A stretch of DNA of 64,000 nucleotides from a virus (taxonomy: Duplodnaviria > Heunggongvirae > Uroviricota > Caudoviricetes), in IMG/VR virus record IMGVR_UViG_3300036819_000070. One strand, 5' to 3'. The notes beneath the pieces are model-generated. The model did not search any database, was not told the origin of the DNA, and worked only from the letters and a program-made list of their open reading frames with translations. The translations under genes and the position numbers were made by a program. Positions 4,185 through 41,821 of the stretch are shown here, in pieces (positions within the stretch are counted from its first letter, which is position 1; each line of letters opens with the position of its first letter).

Positions 4185-4410
4185 TCGTTTCAAACCTGCT
4201 GAACGCGCGGTTTTCGTAGTAGGTGCCAAGATCGAATGGCGCAACGGTGGACACTGGCACCCTGCCGAGATTATCGAGGGTATCGACGTTGACGGCATCG
4301 GTGTCCAACGCGTGATGATTCGGCACACTGGCCGGACCACTCGCACCGTGAGCACTGGCGAGACTTTCGGCGGCTATCCCGGAAAGATCCGCGTCCCTAC
4401 TACCGCGTGA
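4174..4410 (+). CDS. hypothetical protein (MARSR- N-terminus)
   Basis: ATG inside the 15-nt junction AATGGCACGTAGTCG overlapping the upstream stop; the same junction recurs at 6230. Confidence 0.45.
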   Translation: MARSRFKPAERAVFVVGAKIEWRNGGHWHPAEIIEGIDVDGIGVQRVMIRHTGRTTRTVSTGETFGGYPGKIRVPTTA

Positions 4411-4478
4411 CCCTGCCTGCCCCCGTGCGCCCGTCCAGCTCACTGCTGACGGCCACGGGGCACCGGTAGGCATGCGCT

Positions 4479-4522: not shown

Positions 4523-5470
4523 GTGATGAGCACTGCGACCGCAGTACGTAGCAAGCGACACCGCACCACCCGACCGGCGGCCAGTACCGACCGGCCTAGG
4601 TTCGATCCGTATCAAGAGGTGACCGATCAGATCATCGCGCTGTTGGAGTCCGGTACTGCACCGTGGCACAAGCCGTGGGATGCGGCTAACGGTGGCATGC
4701 CTAGGTCATTGTCTACCGGTAAGCCGTACCGGGGTATTAACCCGTTCCTCTTGCAGATGGCGGCTATTGCGCACGGGTACGCGTCGCCATGGTGGGCGAC
4801 TTACGACAATATCGCGTCGCGTGGTGGGCAAGTACGCAAGGGTGAGAAGGGCACCATGGTTATTTTCTGGAAGCAGTACGTCCGGAAAGCTACAGAAGTC
4901 GGCGAGGACGATAGGCCAGCTTTCGTGGCGCGTGCGTTCAAAGTGTTCAATACCGATCAAGCGGATGGTTTGACGTTGCCACCCATTGCGGAGCGGCCCG
5001 TTGATTCGGTTGATCCTATCGCGGCTTGTGATGCGGCTATCGCGGGTTATCTCGCGACCGGCCCGACGGTGCACCATGGTGGTAATCGCGCCTGCTATTG
5101 GCCAGATGCGGACACTATCAACATGCCAGAGCGGGACACGTTCGACGGTTCCGAAGAGTATTACGGGACGTTGTTTCACGAAAGCGTGCACAGCACGGGG
5201 CACAAAAAGCGTTTAGCGCGGCCCGACTTGCTCAATATGCACGCGTTCGGGGACGTGAGCTATAGCAAGGAAGAATTGGTCGCTGAGTTGGGGTCAGCAT
5301 TCCTGTCCGGTCATACCGGTATCACCGTCGTTACCCTGCCAAACTCAGCGGCGTATCTGGCCTCTTGGATTAAGGTATTGCGCGGTGATCATAAACTGCT
5401 AATCCAAGCGGCAGGGCAAGCACAAAAGGCAGCGGACCTAATCCTCGGCATTACCTACGATACCGAATAG
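4523..5470 (+). CDS. ArdC-like antirestriction protein (ssDNA-binding N-domain + zincin metalloprotease)
   Basis: N-terminal PWHKPW...GINPFLL region resembles ArdC-N/DUF1738; C-terminal HESVHSTGH (HExxHxxGH) zincin motif. Confidence 0.7.
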   Translation: MMSTATAVRSKRHRTTRPAASTDRPRFDPYQEVTDQIIALLESGTAPWHKPWDAANGGMPRSLSTGKPYRGINPFLLQMAAIAHGYASPWWATYDNIASRGGQVRKGEKGTMVIFWKQYVRKATEVGEDDRPAFVARAFKVFNTDQADGLTLPPIAERPVDSVDPIAACDAAIAGYLATGPTVHHGGNRACYWPDADTINMPERDTFDGSEEYYGTLFHESVHSTGHKKRLARPDLLNMHAFGDVSYSKEELVAELGSAFLSGHTGITVVTLPNSAAYLASWIKVLRGDHKLLIQAAGQAQKAADLILGITYDTE

Positions 5471-5477
5471 GTGCATC

Positions 5478-6023
5478 ATGTTCTCACGCACTAACGAATA
5501 CGCATTCCTTGCGAACGTTCCGCATACTATCCACGGTCTGCGGATCTTGCAGGTTTCCAGATACGTGCCTGGTGGTAATGGATGGTATGCCAGTGCGACC
5601 ATTGTCGCGCTACGGACCGATGACGCGACTTATTCGACTCACACGCTTATCGCTCAGGATGATATGGGCGAGACAATCGTTTGGTCTATGGAGCGCGGAC
5701 ACTACGATATCCGAACATTGCAGGACGCCGAACGCGACGCGCTAACGCGAGCTGGACGGATTGGACCACGCATAGAGATAATCGTTTGGCGTGATCCCGA
5801 TTCGAGTAATGAGGTTGCCGTATTTGTGGACGGCGTCGCAATCGACAATGCGGAAATAATCAACATCGACCCCGGTGCAGGTTGTTCCCGCAGCGACTGG
5901 GAAGAAAACGCGGCGAGTGCGGTAGCGGCTGCTACCCCGAAAGCTGCGGTGCTGATTGCTGATTGGTTCGAGCAGGCAGGCGATAGCCCATACATCACCG
6001 ACGACGACGACGACGACGATTAA
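5478..6023 (+). CDS. hypothetical protein with poly-Asp C-terminus
   Basis: 181-aa ORF; (GAC)7 at 6001-6021 encodes DDDDDDD. Confidence 0.5.
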   Translation: MFSRTNEYAFLANVPHTIHGLRILQVSRYVPGGNGWYASATIVALRTDDATYSTHTLIAQDDMGETIVWSMERGHYDIRTLQDAERDALTRAGRIGPRIEIIVWRDPDSSNEVAVFVDGVAIDNAEIINIDPGAGCSRSDWEENAASAVAAATPKAAVLIADWFEQAGDSPYITDDDDDDD

Positions 6024-8805: not shown

Positions 8806-9044
8806 AGCATGCTTATTGTGCGCAGGAAAAGCATGCTTATTGGTACGCAGGAAAAAAAGCATGCTTTATGTTCGCGGTGGCTTGTGCTGGCAATCGCACC
8901 ATGTGTAGCCCCGGCAAAGGTCGTGGGTGTCGGATTCACACGCGTCGCAGACGAAGTTCAGGAAAAGCATGCTTTGTTTACTCCCCTGCCGAAAAGCATG
9001 CTTATTTGGCGCAGCAAAGCATGCTTATTTTGTTTTTTGGGGTG

Positions 9045-9116
9045 CGACTCTGACGGGATTCGAACCCGCGCCTTCCACCTTGACAAGGTGGCGCTCTCCC
9101 GTTGAGCTACAGAGCC
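9045..9116 (-). tRNA. tRNA-Asp (anticodon GTC)
   Basis: Minus-strand cloverleaf: acceptor GGCTCTG/CAGAGTC, D arm GCTC-AACGGGA-GAGC, anticodon stem CCACC/GGTGG loop TTGTCAA, T arm GCGGG-TTCGAAT-CCCGT, discriminator G, no encoded CCA. Confidence 0.75.
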
Positions 9117-13065: not shown

Positions 13066-13569
13066 TTAGACGGCGCTGAACGTTGGCACGTCTACGCGTA
13101 CCTCGCCGCCGTGGTGCTCGTGCTCGTGCTGCTCGTGCTGCGGGGGTTGGTTGGTGCTGCCGTCGGTGGACCCGTTCTGTGAGGCGGTGCTAGAGGTGCT
13201 GGAGCTGGTGGAGCTGGAGCTGCCCTCGTTAGCGTCCTTCCACGCGGCGAGGACGTTGACGGGGATCCGTCCACGGTCGGACACGGGGTAGCCATTTTCT
13301 CGAGCCCACTGCTTGATCCGGCGGTTCTGCTCCCGGTTGGCGGCGAGTTCCGCAGCGTCGGCCTTGCGCGCGGCGCTGCGGGTGGCGGGGGTGTCGATGG
13401 CCTTGCGGGCTGCCGAGACGTACTCGGCCAGCGCTTCATCGAGCTGGCGGGCGTTGTCGTCGGTCAAGTCGATCTCATAGGACACGCCGTCGAGCCCGAA
13501 CTTCTTGAGCTTCGCGCCGGAAGCGCCGCTGAGGTCATCGAGGGTGACGACGGTTTCTTTCCTAGCCAT
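13066..13569 (-). CDS. lsr2: Lsr2-like nucleoid-associated protein
   Basis: Internal Met with GGAGAG RBS; N-terminal dimerisation-like region; C-terminal IKQWARENGYPVSDRGRIPVNVLAAW matches Lsr2 DNA-binding RGR motif. Confidence 0.8.
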   Translation of the reverse strand: MARKETVVTLDDLSGASGAKLKKFGLDGVSYEIDLTDDNARQLDEALAEYVSAARKAIDTPATRSAARKADAAELAANREQNRRIKQWARENGYPVSDRGRIPVNVLAAWKDANEGSSSSTSSSTSSTASQNGSTDGSTNQPPQHEQHEHEHHGGEVRVDVPTFSAV

Positions 13570-13748
13570 GTTGTTGATCTCTCCAAATGTTCCGAGGGGT
13601 TGTATCGCGAATAGACGATCGCACGTTACAGCGCATGTGACAGGAGACAAGTCGGTGACCCAGTGCGTGGGTCACTCGACTTGATCTCGACTTCGCTGCG
13701 CAGTTGCTTATCACCGCTAAGGACGTAAGGGATCATCCTTTCAGGTGA

Positions 13749-18216: not shown

Positions 18217-18505
18217 TCAGGTAGTAGTCACGGGGGTCATTGATTCGCGAGCAGGGGGCGCGGTAATAACCCCACCCGACCCGCGCGGCCATGTGGTGCT
18301 CGTGCCGGTCGCCGCAATGGGGGCAGTCCACTACCGCCACCACCCAATGCAATGCGACTTTCGACGGGAATCGCCGATCGGTGATTTGCCCATTGGGATT
18401 AGCCCACCGATAAGGGTCGATTCGGCATTGGACAGTGGGGCAGTCGACGCCCATGTAAGGGTAGGGAATGGTCATGGGCGTAGGACACCCGCTAACGCCG
18501 GCCAT
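18203..18505 (-). CDS. Zn-finger hypothetical protein
   Basis: CPHCGDRHEHH motif; overlaps neighbours at both ends. Confidence 0.4.
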   Translation of the reverse strand: MAGVSGCPTPMTIPYPYMGVDCPTVQCRIDPYRWANPNGQITDRRFPSKVALHWVVAVVDCPHCGDRHEHHMAARVGWGYYRAPCSRINDPRDYYLIVTD

Positions 18506-19083
18506 TTCACGACGGCCATTGGTAGGCCGTGGTGCTTACGCATCGGGACTGGCCAACCCAGGCGCTGCGCGCACATGTGAGCCATCGCCAGGGCCTCGCA
18601 CTCGTGGTGGCGTAGCTCGCTGACGGTGCACCCGATGTTCGGCCACATTTCGTGCATTGCTGCAACGATGTGGCGCTTTTCGACAGGCTTTTTCGCCGAC
18701 CCACCATGGCCGGTGCACCATTTTTTCAGGGTGGTCGGGGCGACCTCCGCGACGGGCGTTTTCAGGCCCAGGATGATGTCAACGACCCACCACCACACAG
18801 CGGAACGATCATGGGAATTGCCGAACTCAGCGGCCAGCGCGGGGGCTTCGATCAGGGCGAGTTCAGCACGCTGCCGAATAATGTCGGCAGCGGATCTACG
18901 CACCAAATCGATGCGCTTATGGCGCTCTGTCAGGGAAACGTCAATGGGCGTGTTGGTGGCAATGACGAAAGTGCGCGCTCGGCAGCCGTCGCCGAGGCGT
19001 TCAATGATCGCGACACCAGTCCGGGAAAGCGCAGAATCCACGCCAATCACGAACGGTGCTAAACGCGATTCAATTGTAGTCAT
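18472..19083 (-). CDS. RuvC-like Holliday junction resolvase
   Basis: Internal Met MTTIESRLAPFVIGVDSALSRTGVAI (catalytic Asp block), KKWCTGHGGSAKKPVEK and HECEALAMA match RuvC motifs; ATGA overlap with upstream gene. Confidence 0.8.
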   Translation of the reverse strand: MTTIESRLAPFVIGVDSALSRTGVAIIERLGDGCRARTFVIATNTPIDVSLTERHKRIDLVRRSAADIIRQRAELALIEAPALAAEFGNSHDRSAVWWWVVDIILGLKTPVAEVAPTTLKKWCTGHGGSAKKPVEKRHIVAAMHEMWPNIGCTVSELRHHECEALAMAHMCAQRLGWPVPMRKHHGLPMAVVKWPALAGVLRP

Positions 19084-19340
19084 TGGGTCGGAACCCAACG
19101 CTGCACTGCCGAATACAAACCGCGACCACGCATCGCTGCACAGCCATGCAAACAATTGACCATCGCAAATGCGATGTCCACATCGGTTGCGTTCCCCGGA
19201 AGCGTAACAGACGCCGAACGGGTCGTTCCGTCGCCCTCGATCAACGACAGCCGAACCTCCATCACCGGAGCCGATTCGGTGTCGACGGCGGTCACCGCTA
19301 ATCCCGGCGGTTCGAGGCTGGTGATTACCGCACTCGTCAT
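19080..19340 (-). CDS. hypothetical protein
   Basis: 86-aa ORF coupled (ATGA) to the RuvC-like gene. Confidence 0.4.
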   Translation of the reverse strand: MTSAVITSLEPPGLAVTAVDTESAPVMEVRLSLIEGDGTTRSASVTLPGNATDVDIAFAMVNCLHGCAAMRGRGLYSAVQRWVPTQ

Positions 19341-19519
19341 TTGCTGACCCCTTCCAAGGTGACGTGCCGAAGCCGAGCGAAATGCGCCGGGACATGCTCT
19401 AGCAATTCCTTGGTCGCTTTGTTAACGCACCGTTCACCAGTCAGCGCGTGGCAATAACCGCACGGCTCAGGCAATGCCATCGCCTCGGCTCGTTGCCGCT
19501 CGAACTCCAGATCCTTCAT
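19337..19519 (-). CDS. small Cys-containing hypothetical protein
   Basis: 60-aa ORF, CGYCHALTGERC. Confidence 0.35.
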   Translation of the reverse strand: MKDLEFERQRAEAMALPEPCGYCHALTGERCVNKATKELLEHVPAHFARLRHVTLEGVSK

Positions 19520-19750: not shown

Positions 19751-20170
19751 TCACGCATCAGTCACACCATTGTCACGGCGTGACGATCCATGTTGACGTG
19801 CGCGGCGCTGGCGGGATGCGGCTCCCGCTCGTTCAATTAGGACGCGTTCCGCAGTTGGATTGTAGGCACTGTAATCATGCATGACCCATCCCCCGTCGCC
19901 CGGTACCCAGAGCCCCGCGCGCTCCAGTCGAACGGCCAAAGATGGTGTTCCATAAAGCGCTGCCAAATCAGCTGGAACGAATCCGTCGGTGAGGTGTTGG
20001 GCGCAGTAGGAACCGCACCTGGTCCACAGTCCGATGGCCGCGTTGCCCGCTTGCAGGGTCTTAGGATGCGAGTGGAAACTGTCGTCGATCTTGAACCATG
20101 TCACCTCGCGATACCTTCCCCCTGAGCCGGCGTCACTGACTCGACATTCAATTGTTTCCATGATCCACAA
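19751..20170 (-). CDS. replisome-organizer N-terminal-domain-like protein
   Basis: TWFKIDDSFHSHPK...AIGLW...DGFVP pattern resembles phage replisome organizer N-domain (WFKl..df..hpK). Confidence 0.45.
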   Translation of the reverse strand: MWIMETIECRVSDAGSGGRYREVTWFKIDDSFHSHPKTLQAGNAAIGLWTRCGSYCAQHLTDGFVPADLAALYGTPSLAVRLERAGLWVPGDGGWVMHDYSAYNPTAERVLIERAGAASRQRRARQHGSSRRDNGVTDA

Positions 20171-20180
20171 CCGTGATCAT

Positions 20181-20423
20181 TTAGGCGTCCCCTTGGTCGT
20201 TCCACGCGAGCAACTGAGACGGGCTGACGTCATCCGGTACCAACCCGGCTAATGTCAACAACAACGCGGTCACCCAGTACGGATGATTACCAGCGGCTTC
20301 GCGAGCGCTCGCGATTGCTTCGGTAATCGCTTTCGAATCACCTTCCCGGACAGCGCCCACTAGCCTTAATGCACTCGGCAAAACGCAATCACCGAGGTCA
20401 TGTCCTGTGCTAGTGGGCGCCAT
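20181..20423 (-). CDS. hypothetical protein
   Basis: 80-aa ORF. Confidence 0.4.
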   Translation of the reverse strand: MAPTSTGHDLGDCVLPSALRLVGAVREGDSKAITEAIASAREAAGNHPYWVTALLLTLAGLVPDDVSPSQLLAWNDQGDA

Positions 20424-20441
20424 ACCGGGCCTTTTCCTAGG

Positions 20442-20861
20442 TCACGCAGCGGCTTCGCGGACCATTTCGGTGAACTCCTCGAACCGCTCGTACCGACGTT
20501 TGAACGCCAACCACTCGCGCCTCATGGCGTTGAGCAGCATCCGTCGTTTGAACGGGTCCTCAGCAATGACGTGAGCCGGTTCGTACACCCAACCGCGTGG
20601 GTTTGGTAGCGCATGGAACGCAGCGACGGACCGCTCATCGCTGTCCTCGTCGGCCTCCTTATAGGAGACTCGCGCGGTGCGGATCAGCTGCCCTGCCTGC
20701 TCTAGTCGCCACGATTGACCAGCAGTGCGGTCATCCCAGTCGAATCGGTGGTGCAATGGGTGGGATTCATCCTGCGCGATCTCGACTACCAGCTTGCGAG
20801 TCAGGATCCCATTGTCATCGTAGATTCCCTGCAAGATTTCGCGGACGTTGTCCGTGTTCAC
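20442..20861 (-). CDS. hypothetical protein
   Basis: 139-aa ORF. Confidence 0.5.
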   Translation of the reverse strand: MNTDNVREILQGIYDDNGILTRKLVVEIAQDESHPLHHRFDWDDRTAGQSWRLEQAGQLIRTARVSYKEADEDSDERSVAAFHALPNPRGWVYEPAHVIAEDPFKRRMLLNAMRREWLAFKRRYERFEEFTEMVREAAA

Positions 20862-20982
20862 GTTTTCCCTCCTTCACCTGTTGTGCCTGCCGCGCCGCAC
20901 CCAACCGGAATCTGCCGGGCCCAGCCCTTCCGTGCCATGACTGCCTTGCCCAGTCGCGCCTACTGCCGCGCACTCAATTGAC

Positions 20983-21596
20983 TTATTTCACGAATTGGAC
21001 GTCGCGGGTCGTATCGATTTGATACGTGCCGAATGCGCCGTCCTTTTCGGGCCGCCATTCACCGACACCGACACCCATTCCGCCGGCCTCGACCAGAGAC
21101 AAAACGGAGTCGCTGGTCAACGCGCTCGTGACGTAGCGGATGGTCAGAGTGGTCGACCATTCCGGGAACTCGGGCCGGTACCGGAGGTCAGCGCCACCGC
21201 GCCCCACGCGCACCACGTCTTCCCGCATCCGTGGCTCGCCTTCGATGCGGGAATAGGCCTGCTCGTCACCGTCGCCGGGCTCACCATGGAAAAACATGTA
21301 TTGCTTGCAAGCGGTCATGGTCAAGCCGGAGTAGAATCGCACACCGCCGACGGTGGCGGCTTTGAATGCGATAGCTGGCATGCCGTAACCCTCACCGCCC
21401 TTGAGGCGGTAGATCGCAGCTCGGTACTCAGCCTCAGGGTCCTTGTTTTCCTTCTGAGATTTCCGGCCCTGCATGTTGTCGAGCATCATCCGCTTCGCTT
21501 TCTCAGAGAAGCGGTTCATGATGAGCGGCGCGGTGCCGATGATGGGTACCATCATCAGCTGGGTACCGATCTTTTCAATGTGGATCTGGTCGCTCA
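20983..21596 (-). CDS. hypothetical protein (204 aa)
   Basis: Real start judged at MSDQIHIEKIG; the upstream 295 codons of ORF 20983..22482 are the pentanucleotide array, open in all six frames. Confidence 0.55.
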
Positions 21597-21664
21597 TTGT
21601 GTGTCCCCTCGTATGTGTGCCTGTTGTCGGAGTTGTGGTGCGCCGGCAAAAATCGCCGGTACAT

Positions 21665-22926
21665 TTGCCGTGCCTGCCTCGCCTTGCCCCGCCATGCCTG
21701 GCGTCGCCGGGCCTGCCGTGCCGTGCAGTGCGATGCCCGGCGTTGCCGTGCCGGGCCTGCCGTGCCGTGCCAGTGCCCTGCCGCGCCGTCATGCCGCTCG
21801 GCGCCTGCCTTGACCTGCCACGCCCTGCCACGCCCCGCCGAGCCACGCCTAGCCGCGACCAGCCCTGCGATGCCTGCCCAGCCGTGCCCGGCCGTGCTGT
21901 GCGTGCCGTGCCTGCCTTGCCGTGCCATGCCCCACCGACCTGAGCCGCGCCGTGGCTGCCAAGCCGTGCCGAGCCGTTCCACGCGTTGCCGAGCTGCGCC
22001 TGCCTTGCCGTGCCGTGCCACGACCAGCCTTTTCGTGCCACGTGTTGCCGCGCCTGCCCCGCCGAGCCGCACCCAGCTGCGACAAACCGCACCCAGCCGC
22101 GCCTGCCACGCCTAGCCGTGCCGAACCCCGCCCCGCCCAGCGGTGCCTGCCCTGCCGGGCCCGGCCGTGCCTTGCCGGGACGCGACGAACCACGCCCGGC
22201 CTGCCGTGCCACACCGAGCCCTGCCGTCCGCGCCATGCCGAACCACGCCTGCCCTGCCGTGCCTAGCCGGGCCCCAGCCCTGCGATGCCCCGCCCAACCT
22301 CGCCGTGCCTGCCTTGCCGAGCCCCGCCCAGCCGCGCCACACCGGGCGCTACCTGGCCGTGCCCTGCCTGCCATGCCGTGCGTTGCCCCACCAGGCCCAG
22401 CCGCGCCGCGCCTGCCACGCCCAGCCGCGCCGCGCCTAGCCACTCGCAACCAGGCCGGTGCCGTGCCTGCCGTGCCATGCATTGCCCAGCCCTGCGACGC
22501 CTGCCAGCCGTGCCACGCCTAGCCGGACCACGCCTGGCCACGGCCACGCCTGCCACGCCACGCCCTGCCGTACGCGCCCAGCTGCGCCTAGCCGCGCCTG
22601 CCCTGCCGAGCCGAACCGTCGAAACCAAGCCGTGCCCTGCCACACCTGCCGGGCCACGCCCTGCCGGGCCATGCCCTCCCATGGCTGGCCTGCCCTGCCG
22701 AGCCGAGCGGGGCCACACCCGGCCGTGCGATGCCTGCCGCGCCGCGTCTCGCCACCGGTGCCATGCCCGTGCCGGACCTGCCGCGCCATGCCGCGCGTTG
22801 CCCTGCCGTGCGATGCCCGGCCGCGCCTGCCGTGCCCCGCCACGCCAAACCCCGCCTCGCCAAACCGCGCCCTGCCGTTCCTGGCCGTGCCTGCCACGCC
22901 ACGCCGTGCCTGGCCACACCTGCCGA
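21665..22926. repeat. 1.26-kb degenerate pentanucleotide array (GCCNN)n on + strand / (GGCAN)n on - strand, ~250 units
   Basis: GCC or TGCC recurs every 5 nt with occasional 1-nt phase slips; all six frames open (ORFs 20983..22482, 22263..22919, 21597..22115 etc. show 5-aa periodic nonsense peptides). Confidence 0.85.
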
Positions 22927-22929
22927 GAA

Positions 22930-23247
22930 TCAGTCGTCGGTTTCGTCGTTTACTGAAAACAAATTGGGGGCGCCTTCGGGCTTAAAAGGACCACCCTGTG
23001 CCGCCACATCTATAACGGTCATTGTTGCGGTGCGTCGCAACTCACCATCTTTCATTCGCTGGACACCGCGGCCTGTGCAAATTGCTTCGACAATGAATGA
23101 CTGACGGTCGTCAATGTTCGGCGGTGCGGTTACCTCATCGAGTGACATCCCAGTGAACTTGATTCGCGCGGCTTCCAAGCCCGCGAGCGGTTCCTGCTGC
23201 TCCATAATCTCAGCGGCGGTATTCATGGGTGATTCTCCTTTGGTCAT
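22930..23247 (-). CDS. hypothetical protein
   Basis: 105-aa ORF immediately right of the array. Confidence 0.5.
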   Translation of the reverse strand: MTKGESPMNTAAEIMEQQEPLAGLEAARIKFTGMSLDEVTAPPNIDDRQSFIVEAICTGRGVQRMKDGELRRTATMTVIDVAAQGGPFKPEGAPNLFSVNDETDD

Positions 23248-23516
23248 TTGGTGGTCGCATTCTCAGAGATCGTGGAAGCGTCGGCGGGGGCTTTCACGGG
23301 GGCGGGGATAGCGTCAGCGAATACCTTCATCAGTTCCCTGACAGCCCCGTCCGAGAAAGACAGTGTGATCAACGCGATGAGCGCTTCGCTGTCCTGTTCG
23401 GTTCGTAACGCCATTGCGGCCTTGACCGCTTCCGCTGCTAGACCTTCCAGTCCTTTGGCGTAGCGTTCACGTTCCCGCGCATTGAGGTCGGTGGTGATGA
23501 GGTGTGGCTTAGCCAT
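23244..23516 (-). CDS. hypothetical protein
   Basis: Internal Met MAKPHLITTDLN; upstream part of ORF 23244..23759 is Arg-rich. Confidence 0.45.
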   Translation of the reverse strand: MAKPHLITTDLNARERERYAKGLEGLAAEAVKAAMALRTEQDSEALIALITLSFSDGAVRELMKVFADAIPAPVKAPADASTISENATTK

Positions 23517-23551
23517 GGCGGTTCCTTCTCTTTCGCGCTGGATGAGGGTGT

Positions 23552-24199
23552 TCATTTGGTCGCGTCGGCGCGCTGCTGGTCGGTGAATACGGCTTCCTGG
23601 CCGGATGCGGCTACGGCGACGTAGGAACTCAGTGAGCTGGTCGCTGAGCGGGTACCGGAATCGGTGGCGGCGTAGGTCATTGTTTGGCCCGACCTGACCC
23701 CTAGGGACGCGCCGACCGCGATGGCGTCTTGGTTGGCGCCGAGGTACACAACCTGCCAACCGAACTCGCGTTCGTGGCGTTGCACCATCGCTTTGATCTC
23801 AGGAAAGGTGTGCTCGTGTGACGCATTTTCTTTCCCGTCCGTCATGATCGCAAGGATCACCGTGCCGGGGCGCTGGTGTTCGGGAAGCGCCGCGAGTTCC
23901 GCACCGAACTCGGCAATGGAACGGCCCATCGCGTCGAGTAGCGCGGTGCTACCGCGTGGGCTCAGCTGAAACGGTGGGATGCTCGCCGGGTCGGTGGACT
24001 CGCACACCGTCTGGTAGCCGTCGTAGTGCGGGTAGGAGTCACTATCGAACTGGGCTATCCGGATGGTGCGCCGGCCGTCGGCGTTCACCTGGTCCTTGAT
24101 GAATCCGTTGATGCCCTCCTCAGCGGCTTCACGGATCAAGTCCATGGAACCGCTACGGTCGATTAACAGCATGATCGCCGCGTAATTCGGGTCTGTCAT
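23552..24199 (-). CDS. von Willebrand factor A (vWA) domain protein
   Basis: MLLIDRSGSMD MIDAS-type motif; GGAGGGAAACAA RBS; ATGA overlap with RecT stop. Confidence 0.65.
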   Translation of the reverse strand: MTDPNYAAIMLLIDRSGSMDLIREAAEEGINGFIKDQVNADGRRTIRIAQFDSDSYPHYDGYQTVCESTDPASIPPFQLSPRGSTALLDAMGRSIAEFGAELAALPEHQRPGTVILAIMTDGKENASHEHTFPEIKAMVQRHEREFGWQVVYLGANQDAIAVGASLGVRSGQTMTYAATDSGTRSATSSLSSYVAVAASGQEAVFTDQQRADATK

Positions 24200-25329
24200 T
24201 TGTTTCCCTCCGTGGAAGCGAGGTCGGCCAGGGTGTGCGTCAAAGTGCCACCGTCTTTGCACCGTTGTAGGAAGTCGTTGATCGTGTCGACGTCGCTCGC
24301 GGTGAGCTGGTCGAATGACGTCACTGGCTCAGCGGGTGGCCGGTTAAGAATCCGGCCGGCTATGCGCAATCGCACCTCACGGTCGGATCCGTTGACTCCA
24401 CCGTCGCGCAGCAATGCGAATAAGCGGTTTGTCTGCGACTTCTCAGGGGCGGCAGGTTCGGCACCGCCGCTCTCATCGACCACGCACGCATTGACCTTGA
24501 CCTGTTCAGCTGAGGCTTTCTCGGTTGCGGCTTTGACGCGTGCGCCAGCCGAGGCGATGCGATCGAGTAGGGGCACGTCGTTGGGCCGCAGGCCCCGCGC
24601 GAGATCCCAAATCTTTTTCAGCTCGGGACGGTCGTTGCGTCCTTCGGCGTCTTTGATCAGCGCATCCCAGTCGGGTTCAGCGGGTCGTTCCCGTTCGGAT
24701 TCGATGATCGTGGGTTGTGGGTTGTTCAGGTGTTCCATTTCGTCGTCTGTGTAAATGTTGGACAGGTCTTGCGGGAACAGCCGGCGGCGAGCGAGGGCCT
24801 CAGCGCATTTCGCGAGCTGCCCGGCGGCTTTCGTCTTCCACATTTTCGTGGGTTCGCCGTCGTATTTGGTTTGGACGTATTCGCGGTAGTGCGCGATGGC
24901 ACGGACGGGGTAGGTGTGGTCTTTGCGTTTGACGGTGAATCGGGCGGCGACGGGTGGGTTGTCGTCATCGGCCCACATTTCTTTCCACACGCCGTCGGGG
25001 CCGCACCATTCAGCGGCGGGGTCGCCTTCCCCGTCGTAGCGCTTATCCCTTTCGCAGAACAGTCTGAATCCGTCGATGCCAGTCTGGATCGTCCATTTTT
25101 TTCCGGTGGGTGAGTCCCGGTCGTTGCGGGCGATGAGGTAAATCTGTCGGGCGAAGGGATCCAAACCGACGCGTTGCGCGACGTGCAAAAAGACTTGCTG
25201 GTCGCCGGGGGGTGCGTCAGCGATTCCGATCTGGTCGAGCGCGGCGCGCTGCGCTGGTGTCCAGTCGATTTGGTCACCGCGCAGCGCCAGGGTGCCGCTG
25301 GAGGTGGTGGCCAGTTCTGTTCCGGTCAC
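24196..25329 (-). CDS. recT: RecT-family ssDNA-annealing protein
   Basis: LHVAQRVGLDPFARQIYLI and following blocks resemble the RecT family; adjacent YqaJ-like exonuclease. Confidence 0.75.
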   Translation of the reverse strand: MTGTELATTSSGTLALRGDQIDWTPAQRAALDQIGIADAPPGDQQVFLHVAQRVGLDPFARQIYLIARNDRDSPTGKKWTIQTGIDGFRLFCERDKRYDGEGDPAAEWCGPDGVWKEMWADDDNPPVAARFTVKRKDHTYPVRAIAHYREYVQTKYDGEPTKMWKTKAAGQLAKCAEALARRRLFPQDLSNIYTDDEMEHLNNPQPTIIESERERPAEPDWDALIKDAEGRNDRPELKKIWDLARGLRPNDVPLLDRIASAGARVKAATEKASAEQVKVNACVVDESGGAEPAAPEKSQTNRLFALLRDGGVNGSDREVRLRIAGRILNRPPAEPVTSFDQLTASDVDTINDFLQRCKDGGTLTHTLADLASTEGNK

Positions 25330-25619
25330 GCGACACGCTCATATGACTGTGCGTGCATGTCGGCGGTCACGGGGTAGGGGTCACCGTCGGCGTCTAACGC
25401 GATGTATCCGTGCCATCCTTCGGGCACTTTGTATTCGCCTTCTTTGGTGGCCACGGTGAACGGGCCACTGACAGGCGCCATGCGGGTGGTGCCGACCTTG
25501 CGGTATTCGGCCCAGCCAACGGGGGGCAGGTTGTCTTTGTCGTAGTCGCTCACGCCTGTTCCCAACCTTTCACGATATGAATCCGGCGTGAGCTGCTGCG
25601 CCGAATGTAGGCATCCCAA
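25326..25619 (-). CDS. hypothetical protein
   Basis: 97-aa ORF between exonuclease and RecT; 5' end overlaps exonuclease 3' end by ~70 nt. Confidence 0.35.
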   Translation of the reverse strand: MGCLHSAQQLTPDSYRERLGTGVSDYDKDNLPPVGWAEYRKVGTTRMAPVSGPFTVATKEGEYKVPEGWHGYIALDADGDPYPVTADMHAQSYERVA

Positions 25620-26563
25620 ATGTCCGGGTGGTCGAACTCCAATGCTTTGTCGACTGCCGGGTTGTTGAGTTGGCTTTTGAACGTGACTACCGGGCGGGGG
25701 CCCAGTAGCAGTGCTTCGTGCTCGCCGGCCATGACCCGGAGGGCTTTGTCGATTTCAGCGGCGCGGTCCTTAGCGGCCTTCTCAGCGGCTTTCAGTTCGG
25801 CGCGTTCGATCAGCATTTGCCGTAGGTACGCGGGCCATTCCGCTTCGACGGCGGTGCCGGGTTGCGCGGTCGGCCACCGCAACGAGATCTCCTCATCGGT
25901 GATGGTGTCCAAATCCACCGGCGGTGGTGTGTCGGTGTCGATGTAGGAGTCCCACCACACGTGGGCGCGTTTCCGCATCCGGTCGATCAATGCGTCGTCG
26001 CGTTCCACCGGTCCACGGATTTGTGGTTCCTGGTCAATGGTGTAGGCCGCGAACCACACGTGGGTGCGGCCAGTGACCATGAGCTGCCATTGACCTTGGA
26101 CGTAGGCGTGGCGGGCGATGCCGCCGTGGCGCCATTCCGCGCCGACTTTCGCCCACGACCCGATGGTTTTCACCTCAAGGCAGCCCCCGTCAGCGGTCAA
26201 TCTGTCGGGGGTGGCCCGGAGGATCGGTGTTTCTTTGTGTTCGACCAGGCCGCAGCGCCGGACCACGAGCTTTGTTTGCTCGGAAAAGAACTCGACTACG
26301 TGCGGTTCCAACCAGTTGCCGCGCCGCATCGCTTCGGTTTGTTCCTGGTGTTCCGCGCGCCCCGTTTTGTCAAGCCATAGCTCGTATTCGCTGCCGTATT
26401 CCGATACCCCCATCAGGAGCGCGACGTCGGACGATCCGATTCCTTTGCGGCGTTCGTCAAGCCACTGATCGCGGGGTGCGTCAGCGCCCAGTACCAGTTG
26501 CCCGGTGGGCATTGACCACGGGTTGACTGGTTTGATTTCCGACCATGGACGGTGACCGGTCAT
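25550..26563 (-). CDS. YqaJ/lambda-Exo-like (PD-(D/E)XK) recombination exonuclease
   Basis: GIGSSDVALLMGVSEYGSEYELWLDKTG...EHKETPILRATPDRL...LEVKT typical of YqaJ viral recombinase exonucleases. Confidence 0.7.
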   Translation of the reverse strand: MTGHRPWSEIKPVNPWSMPTGQLVLGADAPRDQWLDERRKGIGSSDVALLMGVSEYGSEYELWLDKTGRAEHQEQTEAMRRGNWLEPHVVEFFSEQTKLVVRRCGLVEHKETPILRATPDRLTADGGCLEVKTIGSWAKVGAEWRHGGIARHAYVQGQWQLMVTGRTHVWFAAYTIDQEPQIRGPVERDDALIDRMRKRAHVWWDSYIDTDTPPPVDLDTITDEEISLRWPTAQPGTAVEAEWPAYLRQMLIERAELKAAEKAAKDRAAEIDKALRVMAGEHEALLLGPRPVVTFKSQLNNPAVDKALEFDHPDIWDAYIRRSSSRRIHIVKGWEQA

Positions 26564-27477: not shown

Positions 27478-28344
27478 TCACGCTGATCCGCCCCATTCGG
27501 GAAGCCGGTTCGTGATCCGGCGCTTGTTATGCAAATTGACTAAAATCTCGGCCATTGCGTCTGAGATCCGGCCACCGCGAATGTCACGCAGTTGCTTTGC
27601 CTTGCCGATCAGACCCAGCGGGCCGCCTTCGTGTTTGCCCAGTTCGGTGACGACTTTCGCGACGTCGAGGCGCGGGTATTGACGCAGGAGCACACCTAAA
27701 CCGGAGACGATTTCGGCGCGCAACGCATTACTGTCGTGGCCCCACGCGGCGGTCGCGAGCTTGACCAACGCGTCGCAGGTCGCGAGGTCACGTCCCTCTT
27801 TCGGCGCCCGGTACACCCGCTCTAATGCGCTGACAGCGAAAAACGATCCTTTCGCTTGGGCTTTGCGGATGGTCCAGCCGTGGGATTCGAGCATCGCGGC
27901 CAGTTCGCAGGCAACGGGATCGCCTTCCACAATCCGGACCCGGAATCTATCGAGTATCTGTACTTGGCGGGTGTTGTTCAAACGGCGGAACATCGCCGCT
28001 TCCTCAGCGCGTGTCAGGCCAGTCCACAGGACACAGGCCACGGGAATGTCCCCTCGGCCGATGACGTGAACAGCGGAAATGCGGTGCTGGCCGTCGATGA
28101 TGTGGTGCGTTCCGTCGGGTCGTTCGGAAACGTGGATCACGCCCAACGCCTCACGCTCAAAGTCGGCGGCGATACCAGCGACCCGAACCGAATCGAGGGG
28201 CCGTTGCACGCTTTGGTCGACGGTGAGCAGCGCCGGCTCAATCTGGGTGATGGTGAACGTCGCCCTACTTGACGGTGGTTTCACACCTTCGAGATCGTGG
28301 GTCCGCACCGGCGGCGGGGTTTTAGTGGGGGTTGCGGTAGTCAT
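27478..28344 (-). CDS. ParB-like nuclease-domain protein 1
   Basis: HHIIDGQHRISAV ParB/Srx N-domain motif; 288 aa. Confidence 0.7.
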   Translation of the reverse strand: MTTATPTKTPPPVRTHDLEGVKPPSSRATFTITQIEPALLTVDQSVQRPLDSVRVAGIAADFEREALGVIHVSERPDGTHHIIDGQHRISAVHVIGRGDIPVACVLWTGLTRAEEAAMFRRLNNTRQVQILDRFRVRIVEGDPVACELAAMLESHGWTIRKAQAKGSFFAVSALERVYRAPKEGRDLATCDALVKLATAAWGHDSNALRAEIVSGLGVLLRQYPRLDVAKVVTELGKHEGGPLGLIGKAKQLRDIRGGRISDAMAEILVNLHNKRRITNRLPEWGGSA

Positions 28345-29959: not shown

Positions 29960-30274
29960 TTAGGCGTCGGTCGACGGGGGGCCGCTGATCACGGCGGCGG
30001 CTAGCCGGCGCGCGTCGTCTTCGCTGAGGTCCGCGATGGGCGGCAGCGGTGGGCGGGGTTGGGCGGCGATGGCTTCGGCGGTGAGCCACGTGTCGCGGTC
30101 GACGTAGATTTCGAAGGTCGACGTGCCGTCGTCGTGCACGCCGTGCGCGGCGGCCACTACGCGCTCCAGCGCTTCGGCGCGTTGGAACAGGTCGATGAAC
30201 GTGTTGCGGACCCAATCCATGTGCGCCTGTAACACGCCGTGTGACATCTCGGGCACGCCAAAGGGGGCGTTCAT
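29960..30274 (-). CDS. hypothetical protein
   Basis: Internal Met MNAPFGVPEMSHG; upstream ORF portion is Arg/Pro-rich. Confidence 0.4.
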   Translation of the reverse strand: MNAPFGVPEMSHGVLQAHMDWVRNTFIDLFQRAEALERVVAAAHGVHDDGTSTFEIYVDRDTWLTAEAIAAQPRPPLPPIADLSEDDARRLAAAVISGPPSTDA

Positions 30275-30513
30275 GACGCGCGGCCCTCCGGTGGGGCGGC
30301 GATCCGGTCTTTCATCCACTGGGCCAGGCCGGCGCGGGAGTACCGGCGGGTGGCGGGTGCGATCTGCAAAAGGGGTGGTCCGGTGCCCTGCCTGGCCCAC
30401 CGCCGCAAGGTTTCGTTGTCCACTTTCAGCATGTCCGCGACCTCCCTGGCGGTGAGCCACTCGTCGTGGAGGAGGTCGGGTTCGTCGTCGTTGTGTAACA
30501 CGTCGTGTGACAT
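30271..30513 (-). CDS. HTH_17 (MerR/excisionase-type) DNA-binding protein; Cro-like candidate
   Basis: WLTAREVADMLKVDNETLRRWARQG; first gene of the long minus-strand run; divergent from 30712 gene. Confidence 0.5.
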   Translation of the reverse strand: MSHDVLHNDDEPDLLHDEWLTAREVADMLKVDNETLRRWARQGTGPPLLQIAPATRRYSRAGLAQWMKDRIAAPPEGRAS

Positions 30514-30711
30514 GACGGAGAGTTCTACACTCGTCACGCTCCGTGTGTCAAGTAAGCTGTGCTGTTCCACGCGATGTAACGGAACGCATGGCGTGGTTGA
30601 TAGACGGGTGGTAGAACTCACGCGCCACGGGCACGGCAGTCGGCCCACCGGTTCCTACGACGCGACTGTCCCGACAGCACCACTACCGCAGGGGGAGGCG
30701 GGCCCGACAAA

Positions 30712-33648: not shown

Positions 33649-33726
33649 TCCGCGCTCCTTCCGGTGTGCACACATCCTACGGTCACCTCACAGTAGTTGT
33701 GACACGTCCGGTATGGTGCGCTCTGC

Positions 33727-33984
33727 ATGGCAGGCAGGGCGTGTTCCGGCGGGGCGAGGCGCGGCTAGGTTGGGCATGGCAGGCACGGTTCGGCACGGGC
33801 ATGGCAGGGCATGGCTCGGCAGGGCAGGCACGGTACGGCGCAGCGCGGAATGGCTAGGTCTGGCCGGGCATGGCGGGGCATGGCAGGTTCGGCGTGGCAC
33901 AGCTGGGTTCGGCTGGGCTCGGCTTGGCAGGGCAGGCCACGCACGGTATCGCTGGGCGGGGCGCGGCTCGGCTAGGCAGGCACC
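33727..33984. repeat. 0.26-kb pentanucleotide array (GGCNN)n, inverted copy of array 21665-22926
   Basis: GGCAG GGCGT...GGCAT GGCAG GGCAT... 5-nt periodic on + strand; lies between integrase terminator and start of gene 33648. Confidence 0.8.
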
Positions 33985-33985
33985 G

Positions 33986-34024
33986 AAAAGGGGCGGCTTT
34001 CGGATAACCGAAGCCGCCCCTTTT
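33986..34024. terminator. Strong bidirectional terminator hairpin (18-bp stem) with flanking A/T runs
   Basis: AAAAGGGGCGGCTTTCGG-ATAA-CCGAAGCCGCCCCTTTT, 12 nt downstream of integrase stop. Confidence 0.7.
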
Positions 34025-34036
34025 GCGCGCTGCTGG

Positions 34037-35239
34037 TCATGCAGTCCGCTTCTTTTTTTGGACACCTCTCTTAGCTGCCGCGAGAGCCACAACATTGTTG
34101 GCGGTGGCGATGGCGGACAACCCGTCAGCGATGGCCTGATCCTGTTGCTGTGCCTTGTGCTGGTAGCGCAGCGCGGCAGCGAACGTGGTGTGCCCGAGCC
34201 GGTTCATCAGATCCTTAAGCGGTGCGCCCATGGACGCGGCCAGCGTGGCGCTGGTGTGCCGTAGATCGTGGAACCGTAGGTCAGGGCGACCGGCCGCCTC
34301 GCGGGCCCGCCACCAGTGCACACGCAGCGACGACTCGCACATGTGCTTGACACCGTCGGCGCCGGGGAACAACAGGCCCTCATCACCGGGGGCGGCGTGC
34401 TCATCGATGTGCGCCACGATCGCGGGAACAACGTGCGGTGGGATCGACACGACCCGGCGGCTGCCGGCCGTTTTCGGTTCCTTGATGACCCGGCCGTCGG
34501 CGCTGCACCACACCACGCTGCGACGGATCCGCAACCAACCGCCCCGGTTGTCTTCGTCAAGCTCGCGTAGGTCAACGTCCTTACGGCGTAGCTCAGCGAG
34601 TTCACCGAACCGGGGTCCGCACCACGCGGCCAGCAACACCGCTAGCTGGTACTTACTGGGCATGGCCTCGACCATGGTCACCAGCTCGTCCACCGTGGCG
34701 GGCTCGGTGTCGATGGCGCGTTTCGCTTGACCAGCACCATGGATCCGGCACGGGTTCACTGCGATCAACTCGTCATCGACGGCAGTGTTGAGGACGGTTC
34801 TCAACAGCGCGTAGGCGTGCGCTTTGGCCGTCTTCCCCGTCTTGAGCCGGGCGTGCCAGGTGCGGACCTTCGCGGCGGTCAACTCGGGCAGCGGGGTGTC
34901 ATCGAAGCTCGGGTAAATGTGGTTGCGCAACAGCGCGGCGTACAGCTCACGGGTCAAGATCCCGAGGTCCCGTTCAGCTAGCCATGCGTCGGCGAACTCG
35001 CGCACCGTCAACGGGGTCGCCGCGTTGGGCTTCCACTTTTCCCGTGTGATCTCTGAGTGCCGCAGCGACAACCACACGTCGCCATCGGTGCGCGTCTCGA
35101 AAGTCAGGGACCGACCGGCGTTGTCCTGAGCTGAGTAGGTGCGCCCGTCAGGGCCGGTGTATCTGGCTTGGAAACGACCGGACGGCAACTTACGGACGTT
35201 GCCGAATGTCCGCTTCTCTTTGGTCGGTTTCCTGGCCAT
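34037..35239 (-). CDS. int: tyrosine integrase (site-specific recombinase)
   Basis: C-terminal HDLRHTSATLAASMGAPLKDLMNRLGHTTFAAALRYQH (R..H..R..Y box); likely start MARKPTKEKRTFGNVRKL; first 93 codons of ORF 34037..35518 are Pro/Thr-rich and overlap gene 35280..35750. Confidence 0.9.
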   Translation of the reverse strand: MARKPTKEKRTFGNVRKLPSGRFQARYTGPDGRTYSAQDNAGRSLTFETRTDGDVWLSLRHSEITREKWKPNAATPLTVREFADAWLAERDLGILTRELYAALLRNHIYPSFDDTPLPELTAAKVRTWHARLKTGKTAKAHAYALLRTVLNTAVDDELIAVNPCRIHGAGQAKRAIDTEPATVDELVTMVEAMPSKYQLAVLLAAWCGPRFGELAELRRKDVDLRELDEDNRGGWLRIRRSVVWCSADGRVIKEPKTAGSRRVVSIPPHVVPAIVAHIDEHAAPGDEGLLFPGADGVKHMCESSLRVHWWRAREAAGRPDLRFHDLRHTSATLAASMGAPLKDLMNRLGHTTFAAALRYQHKAQQQDQAIADGLSAIATANNVVALAAAKRGVQKKKRTA

Positions 35240-35279
35240 CAGCTTGTCGCCTTTCGTTCGGTCACGACGGTCGGGTAGG

Positions 35280-35750
35280 TCACGGGAGCATGCGGTCTGG
35301 GCCTTGGTAGGCCAGTGCCACGGGGTAGGTGATGGTGCGACGGTTGACGGGGTTAAGCCGCCCCGAGTCGATGATGGTGTACCCAGCGGCCCGTAGTTCG
35401 CGGTGCATGTTCGCGTCGGCGGTTGCCGGGTCGTCGTCGGCCGGGTAGCCGATGATCTCGACTTCACCGTCAATTTCCATGGTGCGGATCCGGATGCGGG
35501 CGGTGCCGTGGTCGTCAAGATCCTCAGGGTCGACTTCGGCGTAGAAAGCCGGCGCAGGATGAGTCAGGTCCCCGCTGTGATCCCGGCCGTCGTGCTGGCC
35601 GGCGATGTCCAGCGCGCTGGGCTTACCGGCGGTCTGTTCGTCGGCGCTGCGGGCCGCCACGAACTTTTCGAAGTCGCCGCAGCGGCACTCAAGGTAGAAG
35701 CCCGACGGGTGCGGGAAGACGGTCACCCGGTGCTCGATCGACTCGGTCAT
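35280..35750 (-). CDS. hypothetical protein
   Basis: 156-aa ORF immediately upstream of int in the same operon. Confidence 0.45.
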   Translation of the reverse strand: MTESIEHRVTVFPHPSGFYLECRCGDFEKFVAARSADEQTAGKPSALDIAGQHDGRDHSGDLTHPAPAFYAEVDPEDLDDHGTARIRIRTMEIDGEVEIIGYPADDDPATADANMHRELRAAGYTIIDSGRLNPVNRRTITYPVALAYQGPDRMLP

Positions 35751-39153: not shown

Positions 39154-39735
39154 ATGATCTTTTTCGTCGGTCATGGTCGCATGGTGGTCACGGGGTGGAC
39201 CCTGGGAAGATTCTGGGAACTCGGCACCGTAGGGCCGCGACACGCAGCCCGTGTGCTATGGCGTGCGGTAGCACAGTGTTACGGTGCGCGCGTGATCAGC
39301 CACCGGGCCAAGACGGTGGTCGTCACCGTCCACGTGATCACGTCGGTGGCCATGCTGGTGGTGACCGCCGCGCTGGTCGCGATCCAACTCCAAGGCTCCA
39401 AACCAGATCAGATTTGGAACCTCGCTACGCGGGTGTTGACACCCACTGCGGGGGTCGCGTTCGCCAGCGGGCTTGTGTTGGCAGTGGGGGGGCCGTGGGG
39501 TTTGTTCCGCTTCCGGTGGGTGATCGCGAAGCTAGAGATCTCGGCGTTGCTGGCCGGCGTTGGGCTGGTCAACCTCGCGGTGCGGTTGGATCCGTTGACG
39601 GTGCTGGTCGCGCGGTCCTGTGCGCTGGTCGCGCTGGTCGCCCTGGTGGCAGTGTCGGTGGCTAAGCCTTGGGGGCGCACTCCCCGGCATCGCATTCATT
39701 GGACACGTCGTAGGGCCGTTAGCTCAATTCGGTAG
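39154..39735 (+). CDS. membrane protein
   Basis: 193 aa with 4-5 hydrophobic helices; 3' end overlaps the tRNA-Lys 5' end. Confidence 0.5.
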   Translation: MIFFVGHGRMVVTGWTLGRFWELGTVGPRHAARVLWRAVAQCYGARVISHRAKTVVVTVHVITSVAMLVVTAALVAIQLQGSKPDQIWNLATRVLTPTAGVAFASGLVLAVGGPWGLFRFRWVIAKLEISALLAGVGLVNLAVRLDPLTVLVARSCALVALVALVAVSVAKPWGRTPRHRIHWTRRRAVSSIR

Positions 39736-39788
39736 AGCAGCAGACTTTTAATCTGCGGGTTCTGGGTTCGATTCCCAGGCGGCCCACC
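39713..39788 (+). tRNA. tRNA-Lys (anticodon TTT)
   Basis: GGGCCGT-TA-GCTC-AATTCGGTA-GAGC-A-GCAGA-CTTTTAA-TCTGC-GGGTT-CTGGG-TTCGATT-CCCAG-GCGGCCC-A-CC. Confidence 0.8.
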
Positions 39789-41747: not shown

Positions 41748-41821
41748 AGCGGGGTGGAGCAGCTCGGTAGCTCGTGAGCCTCATAAGCTCAAGGTCGCGG
41801 GTTCGAATCCCGTCCCCGCCA
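41748..41821 (+). tRNA. tRNA-Met (anticodon CAT) with initiator-like features
   Basis: AGCGGGG-TG-GAGC-AGCTCGGTA-GCTC-G-TGAGC-CTCATAA-GCTCA-AGGTC-GCGGG-TTCGAAT-CCCGT-CCCCGCC-A; A1xC72 mismatch and A11:T24 pair; no CCA. Confidence 0.7.

Follow-up and report, generated by a model that had tools for sequence, protein, structure and literature searches.

What is more than a kilobase of degenerate pentanucleotides doing inside a phage operon? The question is raised by a 64,000-nucleotide stretch of DNA from a tailed phage (Caudoviricetes; IMG/VR record IMGVR_UViG_3300036819_000070), hereafter the window, in which positions 21665-22926, read on the minus strand, are made up of about 258 GGCNN units lying next to a gene for a protein of 204 amino acids. 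Having analysed both the whole window and this array, we regard it as highly probable that the latter supplies the guide RNAs of a VIPR (Viral Interference Programmable Repeat) system, the carrier being a phage-like element integrated in an actinobacterium. We read it so because the array combines a strong periodicity with the lack of a codon signal, because its partner gene is homologous to Vipr and lies on a constant strand relative to the repeats in other loci, and because the repeats are punctuated and modular. An original prediction, made from the letters of the window alone, had stated that no described phage element looked like this; that statement has been overtaken by the VIPR preprints of April-June 2026, in which pentanucleotide guide RNAs (vrRNAs) composed of GGY and NN are described. 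The type of system is thus known already, and what is new here is an unusually large staggered example, an orphan array, the conservation of the junctions between guides and the apparent turnover of guide-sized blocks.

As described in the 2026 bioRxiv preprint that reports it, VIPR is a form of RNA-guided DNA recognition and a proposed ancestor of CRISPR effector proteins (10.64898/2026.04.26.720920). Its protein, Vipr, has about 20 kDa and is a RAMP protein related to Cas5, Cas6 and Cas7 that branched off early, while the vrRNA is a run of 9-16 YNNGG repeats with a conserved GGY and a hypervariable NN; base pairing with double-stranded DNA is through the NN dinucleotides and leaves out one target base in three, and what is targeted in nature is for the most part competing phages, satellites and prophages (10.64898/2026.04.26.720920). 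Seven VIPR types that differ in their vap accessory genes are distinguished, and in staggered arrays neighbouring vrRNAs share one nucleotide, as stated in the legend to fig. S18 (10.64898/2026.04.26.720920). Cryo-electron microscopy places one Vipr protomer on each vrRNA pentanucleotide, in which H17 and D177 read G1, R138 and W178 read G2, and R179 together with a narrow pocket reads Y3, and shows that target binding by Vipr-vrRNA yields an R-loop triplex (10.64898/2026.04.26.720927).

Results

The array is a genuine repeat, and it does not encode protein

The array differs from the rest of the window in composition, with a G+C content of 77% in 21665-22926 as against 62% window-wide and a strong strand asymmetry (C 601 vs G 371 on the plus strand). 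At lags 5 and 10 the base autocorrelation is 0.55 and 0.52, respectively, with values of about 0.25-0.30 at other lags, and the Fourier spectrum holds a single dominant peak at a period of 4.89 nt (power 41 against a median of 0.44); the two checks that the original prediction had proposed for its five-nucleotide period thus both bear it out, with the spectral peak shifted to 4.89 nt. The pattern (GCCNN)4GCC occurs 15 times in this array (array 1) and 5 times in a second array further along, i.e. 20 times in the window, and not once in 100 dinucleotide-preserving shuffles of the window, which places the repeat far beyond chance. Its minus strand carries 193 GGC and 220 GGY triplets, and all 16 NN dinucleotides are in use, diverse and with no single dominant unit, with an over-representation of GGCAC and GGCGC.

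Fourier power at period 3 is 0.5-0.95 in the array, which is background, and 8-13 in the flanking genes. The claim that all six reading frames are open across the array fails, since each frame has 2-3 stop codons (composition predicts 3.6) and the longest open run covers 284 of 420 codons; what the array yields in all six frames are pseudo open reading frames (ORFs), including a 499-aa ORF at 20983-22482 and pseudo-proteins with a five-residue period. Because the period-5 signal is strong and the codon signal absent, the array is non-coding, as had been suggested. Megablast found no nucleotide match to known phages, RecT alone being matched weakly, and Rfam at its gathering thresholds returned three tRNAs only, neither a hammerhead nor any further family being detected within the arrays or beside them.

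The placement of the repeat inside a minus-strand operon is also upheld, all genes of this part of the window lying on the minus strand. Of the flanking genes that had been named, the one starting at 22930 is present as a 105-aa ORF (22930-23247, minus strand), while the downstream minus-strand gene, given as 21596, starts at 21597. A promoter and terminator scan of 20000-24500 detected no terminator and only weak promoter-like sites, so that array 1 seems to be co-transcribed with the operon as GGCNN RNA and, to judge from these signals, looks to have no obvious transcription unit of its own.

Blocks of guide length are punctuated by a one-nucleotide overlap

Phase slips in the array had been taken as occasional, single-nucleotide events, but they turn out to be both frequent and directional. 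In array 1, 27 of the 31 slips are -1, i.e. a 4-nt unit, and almost always read GGCA|GGC; the phase of GCC drifts one way only, and the autocorrelation at lags 4, 9, 14 and so on to 39 grows with distance. On the plus strand the 4-nt unit is GCCT (on the minus strand, GGCA then GGC); 23 copies are present, spaced 4+5n nt apart. Viterbi tracking of the phase along the minus strand parses the array into 32-33 in-phase segments, most of which end in GGCA, and the modal segment of 44 nt corresponds to 8 full GGCNN units followed by GGCA. About 15 clean blocks measure 39, 44, 49, 54, 59, 64 or 69 nt (7-13 full units plus the terminal GGCA), and the in-phase blocks as a whole are mostly 5n+4 nt long, or 8-14 units, which is consistent with the published 9-16 repeats per vrRNA. 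The spectral peak falls at 4.89 nt because successive guides, each in pentanucleotide phase, overlap by one nucleotide.

The same punctuation is found elsewhere. Of the 179 slips counted in 24 arrays taken from different loci, 156 are -1 and 132 of 155 such slips read GGCA|GGC; block lengths again peak at 39, 44, 49, 54, 59, 64 and 69 nt. The GGCA|GGC junction together with block lengths of 5n+4 is a conserved trait across unrelated loci, and the punctuation appears to fit the staggered vrRNA architecture with its one-nucleotide overlap, for which the legend to fig. S18 is the source. Three arrays that adjoin distant Vipr homologs yet follow other rules than GGCA|GGC may be mentioned here: one (L007, 6301-7005) runs through about 140 consecutive GGCNN units without any phase break, another (L039) has an unbroken in-phase stretch of 877 nt, and in the third (L097, 469-958) the breaks are +1, i.e. 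6-nt units, instead of -1.

The adjoining gene is a vipr homolog

The partner gene (20983-21597, minus strand) lies directly downstream of array 1 and, by homology and structural modelling, probably encodes a RAMP-fold Vipr protein of 204 aa (phrog_4652) with the G-loop GGMGVGVGEWRP; the original view of the locus, which had the array and its flanks right, had overlooked both this partner and the second array at about 33.8 kb. We detected 5249 homologs of the protein, about 200-225 aa long and starting at the same methionine, and found no Pfam domain in it; Pfam, NCBIfam and PADLOC (Cas families included) gave no match for the 204-aa protein or its 139-aa neighbour. An AlphaFold2 model from a 27-sequence alignment reached a pLDDT (the predicted per-residue model confidence) of 83.6, and the protein has the characters of the RAMP fold, namely a mass of about 20 kDa, an RRM core, a glycine-rich loop and a thumb hairpin. 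A search of BFVD returned just three significant viral RAMP-like matches.

The link to Vipr runs through Escherichia phage SUSP1, whose gp039 we identified as Vipr on the grounds that 9 of the 10 residues named in the cryo-electron microscopy preprint stand at the exact published positions (H17, K33, E71, M72, R138, C173, D177, W178 and R179; position 175 is V, not T). The family profile of the 204-aa protein matches gp039 with 28.8 bits (E 9e-11 in a two-sequence search) and, by hhalign, with a probability of 95.9% (E 5e-9). This alignment pairs the invariant R141 with R138 of the thumb and the invariant E180-W181-R182 with D177-W178-R179 of the G-loop, and spans residues 128-195 only, i.e. 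the C-terminal third, so that equivalents of H17 and K33 are not established. A homolog in Pseudomonas phage LESphi2 provides a closer intermediate, matched over its full length with 66.9 bits, and upstream of it lie three canonical vrRNAs, each with about 12 GGYNN units and then a conserved tail. On this homology the 204-aa protein is, in our assessment, Vipr.

A 139-aa gene downstream of vipr (phrog_15946; 20442-20861, minus strand) is conserved beside vipr in 28 loci and is the candidate vap accessory gene. The locus thereby shows what is expected of a minimal VIPR locus, with a vap-type accessory gene and with no CRISPR array or cas genes detected. A small hairpin, CCGGCGAUUUUUGCCGG (21640-21664, minus strand), follows the last guide of array 1 and precedes the ribosome-binding site of vipr, and it is kept in the near-identical element L145; the predicted fold of the 93 nt around it is not better than that of shuffled sequences (z -0.85).

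Arrays and vipr keep the same strand in other loci

A scan of IMG/VR with the DNA pattern (GCCNN)7GCC alone, without any protein query, recovered at least 120 contigs, so that the consensus search that had been proposed did find relatives in public phage DNA, Gordonia and Mycobacterium phages among them. Among the matches listed, 98 loci, including the window and three GenBank phages, carry period-5 arrays of 80-1570 nt with spectral periods of 4.9-5.0 and a host G+C of 0.39-0.76; the figures in this paragraph all refer to these listed matches. A Vipr homolog, called at E<1e-3 with a narrow family hidden Markov model, is present in 60 of the 98, with a median of 20 nt between it and the array and, in 53 of the 60, no more than 500 nt. 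The array lies upstream of the homolog in 20 loci and downstream in 40, and GGC reads on the coding strand of the homolog in 60 of 60, which speaks for the G-rich GGCNN transcript that had been predicted. The RAMP gene, always on the same strand, is the only constant neighbour of the arrays.

Arrays of 0.5-1.6 kb recur beside Vipr homologs, and the gene contexts vary. In Gordonia phage ODay the array follows right after gene 19, between tail genes; in the immunity region of Gordonia phage Pipp an array (L123, 4126-4395) is annotated as gp43, and in that of Mycobacterium phage Donkeykong a 350-nt array is annotated as gp48 and the N-terminus of gp49. These Donkeykong pseudo coding sequences occupy L122 2980-3366 (gp48) and 3333-3500 (N-terminus of gp49) and, like gp43 of Pipp, are entered in GenBank as 'hypothetical protein'. 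On a 122-kb ENA contig (L125) whose Vipr is 68% identical, an array of about 850 nt (5030-5885) lies downstream of vap and stops at a terminator-like hairpin, with radical-SAM and methyltransferase genes nearby. A syntenic relative of our locus (L128) has RecE-RecT upstream and an array in the vipr-vap spacer (4330-4470).

Near-identical elements differ by indels at or near block size

Three assemblies, from samples SRR11836410, JGI 3300048997 and SRR27584573, permit a comparison at close range. One of them, a Logan assembly (L144), matches the window without a difference along 2901 nt, the entire array among them, and may come from the same sample as the window; the other two (L145 and L146), from other samples, encode an identical Vipr protein next to arrays about 92% identical to that of the window, with many gaps. 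Between L145 and the window the vipr DNA differs by 2.4% only, while the differences between the arrays include a 103-nt insertion/deletion (indel) that comprises exactly two adjacent guides (44 + 59 nt), a 43-nt indel, a 25-nt insertion and a rearranged stretch. Such indels, at or near block size, imply that the arrays change mainly by gain or loss of guide-sized pieces and not by single-unit slippage, and the sequences compared here suggest that arrays turn over in this manner.

A mini-array, an orphan array and the surrounding element

Two further arrays appear to belong to the locus. The 121-nt spacer between vipr and vap holds what reads as a degenerate mini-array of 1-2 guide-length blocks (20883-20967, minus strand) ending in GGCAGGCAC, in the same spacer that houses an array in L128. 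Farther away, 12 kb from vipr, beside the integrase gene and in the opposite orientation to array 1, pattern matches, the sequence and a phase parse identify a putative orphan array of the staggered kind (array 2; 33729-33982, plus strand) with about 6 blocks of 49, 16, 29, 59, 49 and ~46 nt, in which GGCNN is on the plus strand, antisense to the neighbouring genes. A putative -10 element, TATGGT (33712-33717, plus strand), precedes it by about 12 nt, and a G+C-rich hairpin set between an A run and a T run, AAAAGGGGCGGCTTTCGGATAACCGAAGCCGCCCCTTTTG (33984-34025), looks like a bidirectional terminator that would end array 2 on the plus strand and the integrase gene on the minus strand. Array 2 therefore looks like an independent transcription unit, as far as these signals go, and one may speculate that its position beside the integrase would suit expression from a prophage.

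Upstream of array 1 and its adjoining 105-aa ORF, the minus strand carries genes for a VWA-like protein (23552-24262), RecT (24196-25329) and a RecE-like exonuclease (25550-26563); downstream of vap follow, on the same strand, a replication-initiator-like ORF (19751-20170) and a RuvC-like resolvase within the ORF 18472-19395. A tyrosine integrase (34037-35518, minus strand) and an excisionase-like helix-turn-helix protein (30271-30648) are also encoded, as are three tRNA genes (Asp, Lys and Met, at 9044-9116, 39713-39788 and 41748-41822). Beyond the integrase (36000-64000) the genes are host-like, e.g. a class V aminotransferase, an ATP-dependent DNA ligase and an HTH_31/DUF5753 regulator, for which reason the window is taken to span an integration junction; the gene content, several items of which are typical of an integrated mobile element, marks the whole as a phage-like element integrated in a high-GC actinobacterium. 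The interval from tRNA-Asp to the integrase holds genes for a nucleoid protein like Lsr2 (13066-13650, minus strand) and for a ParB-like DUF6551 protein with a weak DndB-like match (27478-28344, minus strand), while an anti-restriction/metallopeptidase protein of the ArdC type (4523-5470, plus strand) is encoded farther out; these three are candidate host-manipulation or counter-defence genes.

Discussion

How the array would work

By analogy with the VIPR systems of SUSP1 and P. fulva, the operon transcript would carry the array as G-rich RNA, on which Vipr protomers would polymerise at one per pentanucleotide, burying each GGC by means of the G-loop (E180-W181-R182) and the thumb (R141) and leaving the NN dinucleotides exposed. 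Each block would then act as one guide, pairing with double-stranded DNA in the manner NNxNNx and so on, with every third base, typically a codon wobble position, skipped; the resulting R-loop triplex would block the transcription of competing phages or other mobile elements, assisted by the accessory protein. We infer that the -1 frame break would end one Vipr filament and start the next, thereby setting guide length with or without cleavage of the RNA, and that the locus may hold about 25 guides in array 1 and about 6 in the orphan array, with 1-2 more between vipr and vap, roughly 30 or more in all. Of the four functions that the original prediction had entertained, a protein-binding lattice comes closest to this scheme; the half-helical turn of duplex DNA that was invoked for it does not fit, the lattice being on RNA (10.64898/2026.04.26.720927).

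Several observations weigh against this picture. About one third of the segments of array 1 are short (10-27 nt) or irregular and off-type, possibly as decayed guides. The fold assignment of the 139-aa protein is weak (winged-helix-like at best), the protein has no similarity to SUSP1 vap1, and no invariable 3' tail or pseudoknot was found between the blocks of array 1. Confirmation by small RNA sequencing is stated, in the text of the preprint, for the hammerhead-interspersed and single-vrRNA architectures and not for the staggered one (10.64898/2026.04.26.720920). Between near-identical arrays the substitutions amount to 1.7% at GGC positions and 3.4% at NN, a two-fold difference that is not significant (p = 0.10). 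As regards targets, no guide matches 1.16 Mb of related loci above permuted guides, and exact one-nucleotide-skip (xNN) patterns of nine guides or cores found no credible target in the viral, genome and metagenome contig collections scanned, where the published search tolerates 20% NN mismatches. Finally, the codon-likeness of the NN strings mostly survives permutation of units across guides and is hence a pooled compositional signal.

The target result is not decisive, because the published criterion, an NN match of at least 80% by nhmmer (10.64898/2026.04.26.720920), admits NN mismatches that an exact scan does not. Matches that did occur in the exact scan were set aside as chance: four in metagenomes fell in low-GC periplasmic-binding-protein-like or FabF-like genes and left the flanking units unmatched, one in a low-GC virus had stop codons in both NNx frames, and nine in viruses came from two unrelated genes with NN on codon positions 2-3. 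No guide matches its own 64-kb window above unit-permuted controls, in line with VIPR, for which the preprint likewise reports no self-targets (10.64898/2026.04.26.720920). When the NN strings of 146 blocks were fitted as a mixture, codon positions 1-2 took weights of 0.36 in sense and 0.39 in antisense, with 0.24 left to a uniform component, while off-frame models and wrong-polarity decoys received a weight of 0 and positive and negative controls behaved as expected; NN composition is weakly compatible with codon positions 1-2.

Other explanations of the repeat

It seems distinctly unlikely that the array is a largely non-functional microsatellite, generated by slippage beside vipr, in which few blocks, if any, act as guides. 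The short and off-type segments just mentioned, about a third of the 32-33, would be expected of such a repeat, as would the excess of GGCAC and GGCGC and the want of targets for any guide tested by exact pattern. Against it stand the conservation of the punctuation motif and of the 5n+4 lengths across unrelated loci, the recurrence of arrays of 0.5-1.6 kb beside Vipr homologs, the diversity of the NN dinucleotides and the loss or gain of two whole guides where slippage would add or remove single units.

A still more improbable alternative is that the repeat acts as DNA, independently of Vipr, whether as a protein lattice, a replication origin or centromere, or a hot spot of R-loops or recombination. 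The array does lie among RecE, RecT, RuvC-like and replication-initiator-like genes, RecE-RecT being also upstream in L128, and its strand asymmetry would suit some of these roles. However, the array-gene pair occurs in unrelated contexts, e.g. among tail genes in ODay and in the immunity region of Donkeykong and Pipp; the RAMP gene is the sole constant neighbour, on the same strand, a dependence unexpected for a site in duplex DNA; and the homologous system was shown by experiment to use its repeats as RNA (10.64898/2026.04.26.720920, 10.64898/2026.04.26.720927). Since the RAMP gene is the sole constant partner, we also dropped three other ideas: a loading lattice for RecT, annealases of that type covering about 5 nt with each subunit, decoys resembling Chi, and an RNA ligand as in TRAP.

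That the array encodes a repeat protein with a five-residue period, e.g. as an N-terminal extension of the 204-aa gene through the 499-aa ORF, is hardly credible: long ORFs in six frames, one of them fused to the downstream gene, and the GenBank calls of Donkeykong gp48 and Pipp gp43 would favour it, but there is no period-3 signal, stop codons are as frequent as composition predicts, frame-breaking slips about every 44 nt would scramble any peptide repeat, and homologs of the 204-aa protein share its start methionine while the side on which the arrays lie, upstream or downstream, varies between loci.

Relation to known systems

The interpretation as a VIPR guide array thus being retained, the locus can be compared with its relatives. 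With staggered VIPR, as described in the text of the preprint, it shares a small RAMP-fold vipr with a vap gene, GGY/NN arrays on the coding strand, carriage by phages or prophages, adjacent guides with one nucleotide in common (here GGCA|GGC) and the lack of cas genes and CRISPR repeats; it differs in its unusual size, with 1.26 kb and about 25 blocks in addition to the spacer mini-array and an orphan array 12 kb off. With the experimentally characterised type II systems of SUSP1 and the P. fulva prophage it has in common a homologous Vipr, whose thumb arginine and G-loop [D/E]-W-R would hold G1, G2 and Y3, a two-gene operon and guides of similar length (about 8-14 units here vs 9-16). In contrast, SUSP1 vrRNAs are discrete transcripts of about 100 nt with an invariable 3' tail or pseudoknot and GGT, whereas here the units are GGC and the guides abut in one operon array. 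The missing 3' tail and the missing similarity to vap1 lead us to place the locus in VIPR but not in type II.

The locus does not qualify as CRISPR-Cas: in place of direct repeats of 24-40 nt that alternate with unique spacers its only periodicity is about 5 nt, and no cas1, cas2 or other cas families were detected. In Class 1 CRISPR-Cas, Cas7, Csm3 or Cmr4 sit on the crRNA with a period of 6 nt of which one is flipped, unlike the period of 5 nt here, with three nucleotides buried, two read and a guide that is non-contiguous. TRAP, an 11-mer ring that binds (G/U)AG repeats 2-3 nt apart in the Bacillus trp leader to control attenuation, is alike in being an oligomeric protein that recognises a conserved triplet about every 5 nt of RNA with one subunit per repeat, and differs in that its fold is unrelated and that its spacer bases are uninformative and take no part in pairing with DNA.

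Implications

The locus illustrates that a DNA pattern is enough to find pentanucleotide arrays and that these are widespread, extending over at least 120 IMG/VR contigs and cultured Mycobacterium and Gordonia phages, and that gene callers and GenBank records make fictitious 'hypothetical proteins' of them. Its abutting guides, some 25 in number, and its conserved GGCA|GGC junction make the locus well suited to the question of what sets the limits of a guide. A modest version of the answer is that the -1 frame break alone delimits the Vipr filaments, in which case the 1.26-kb transcript may supply about 25 guides without a processing nuclease.

The change between near-identical arrays by pieces of about block size bears, in turn, on whether VIPR has guide turnover. 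We consider it unlikely, at present, that the guide bank is actively updated; on that reading the GGCA|GGC junction would serve as an inherent site of recombination and of register, and both here and in L128 the array lies directly downstream of RecE/RecT. If new guides were gained, e.g. by RecET-type annealing or by template switching at the junction, the array would amount to a heritable, renewable memory that does without Cas1-Cas2.

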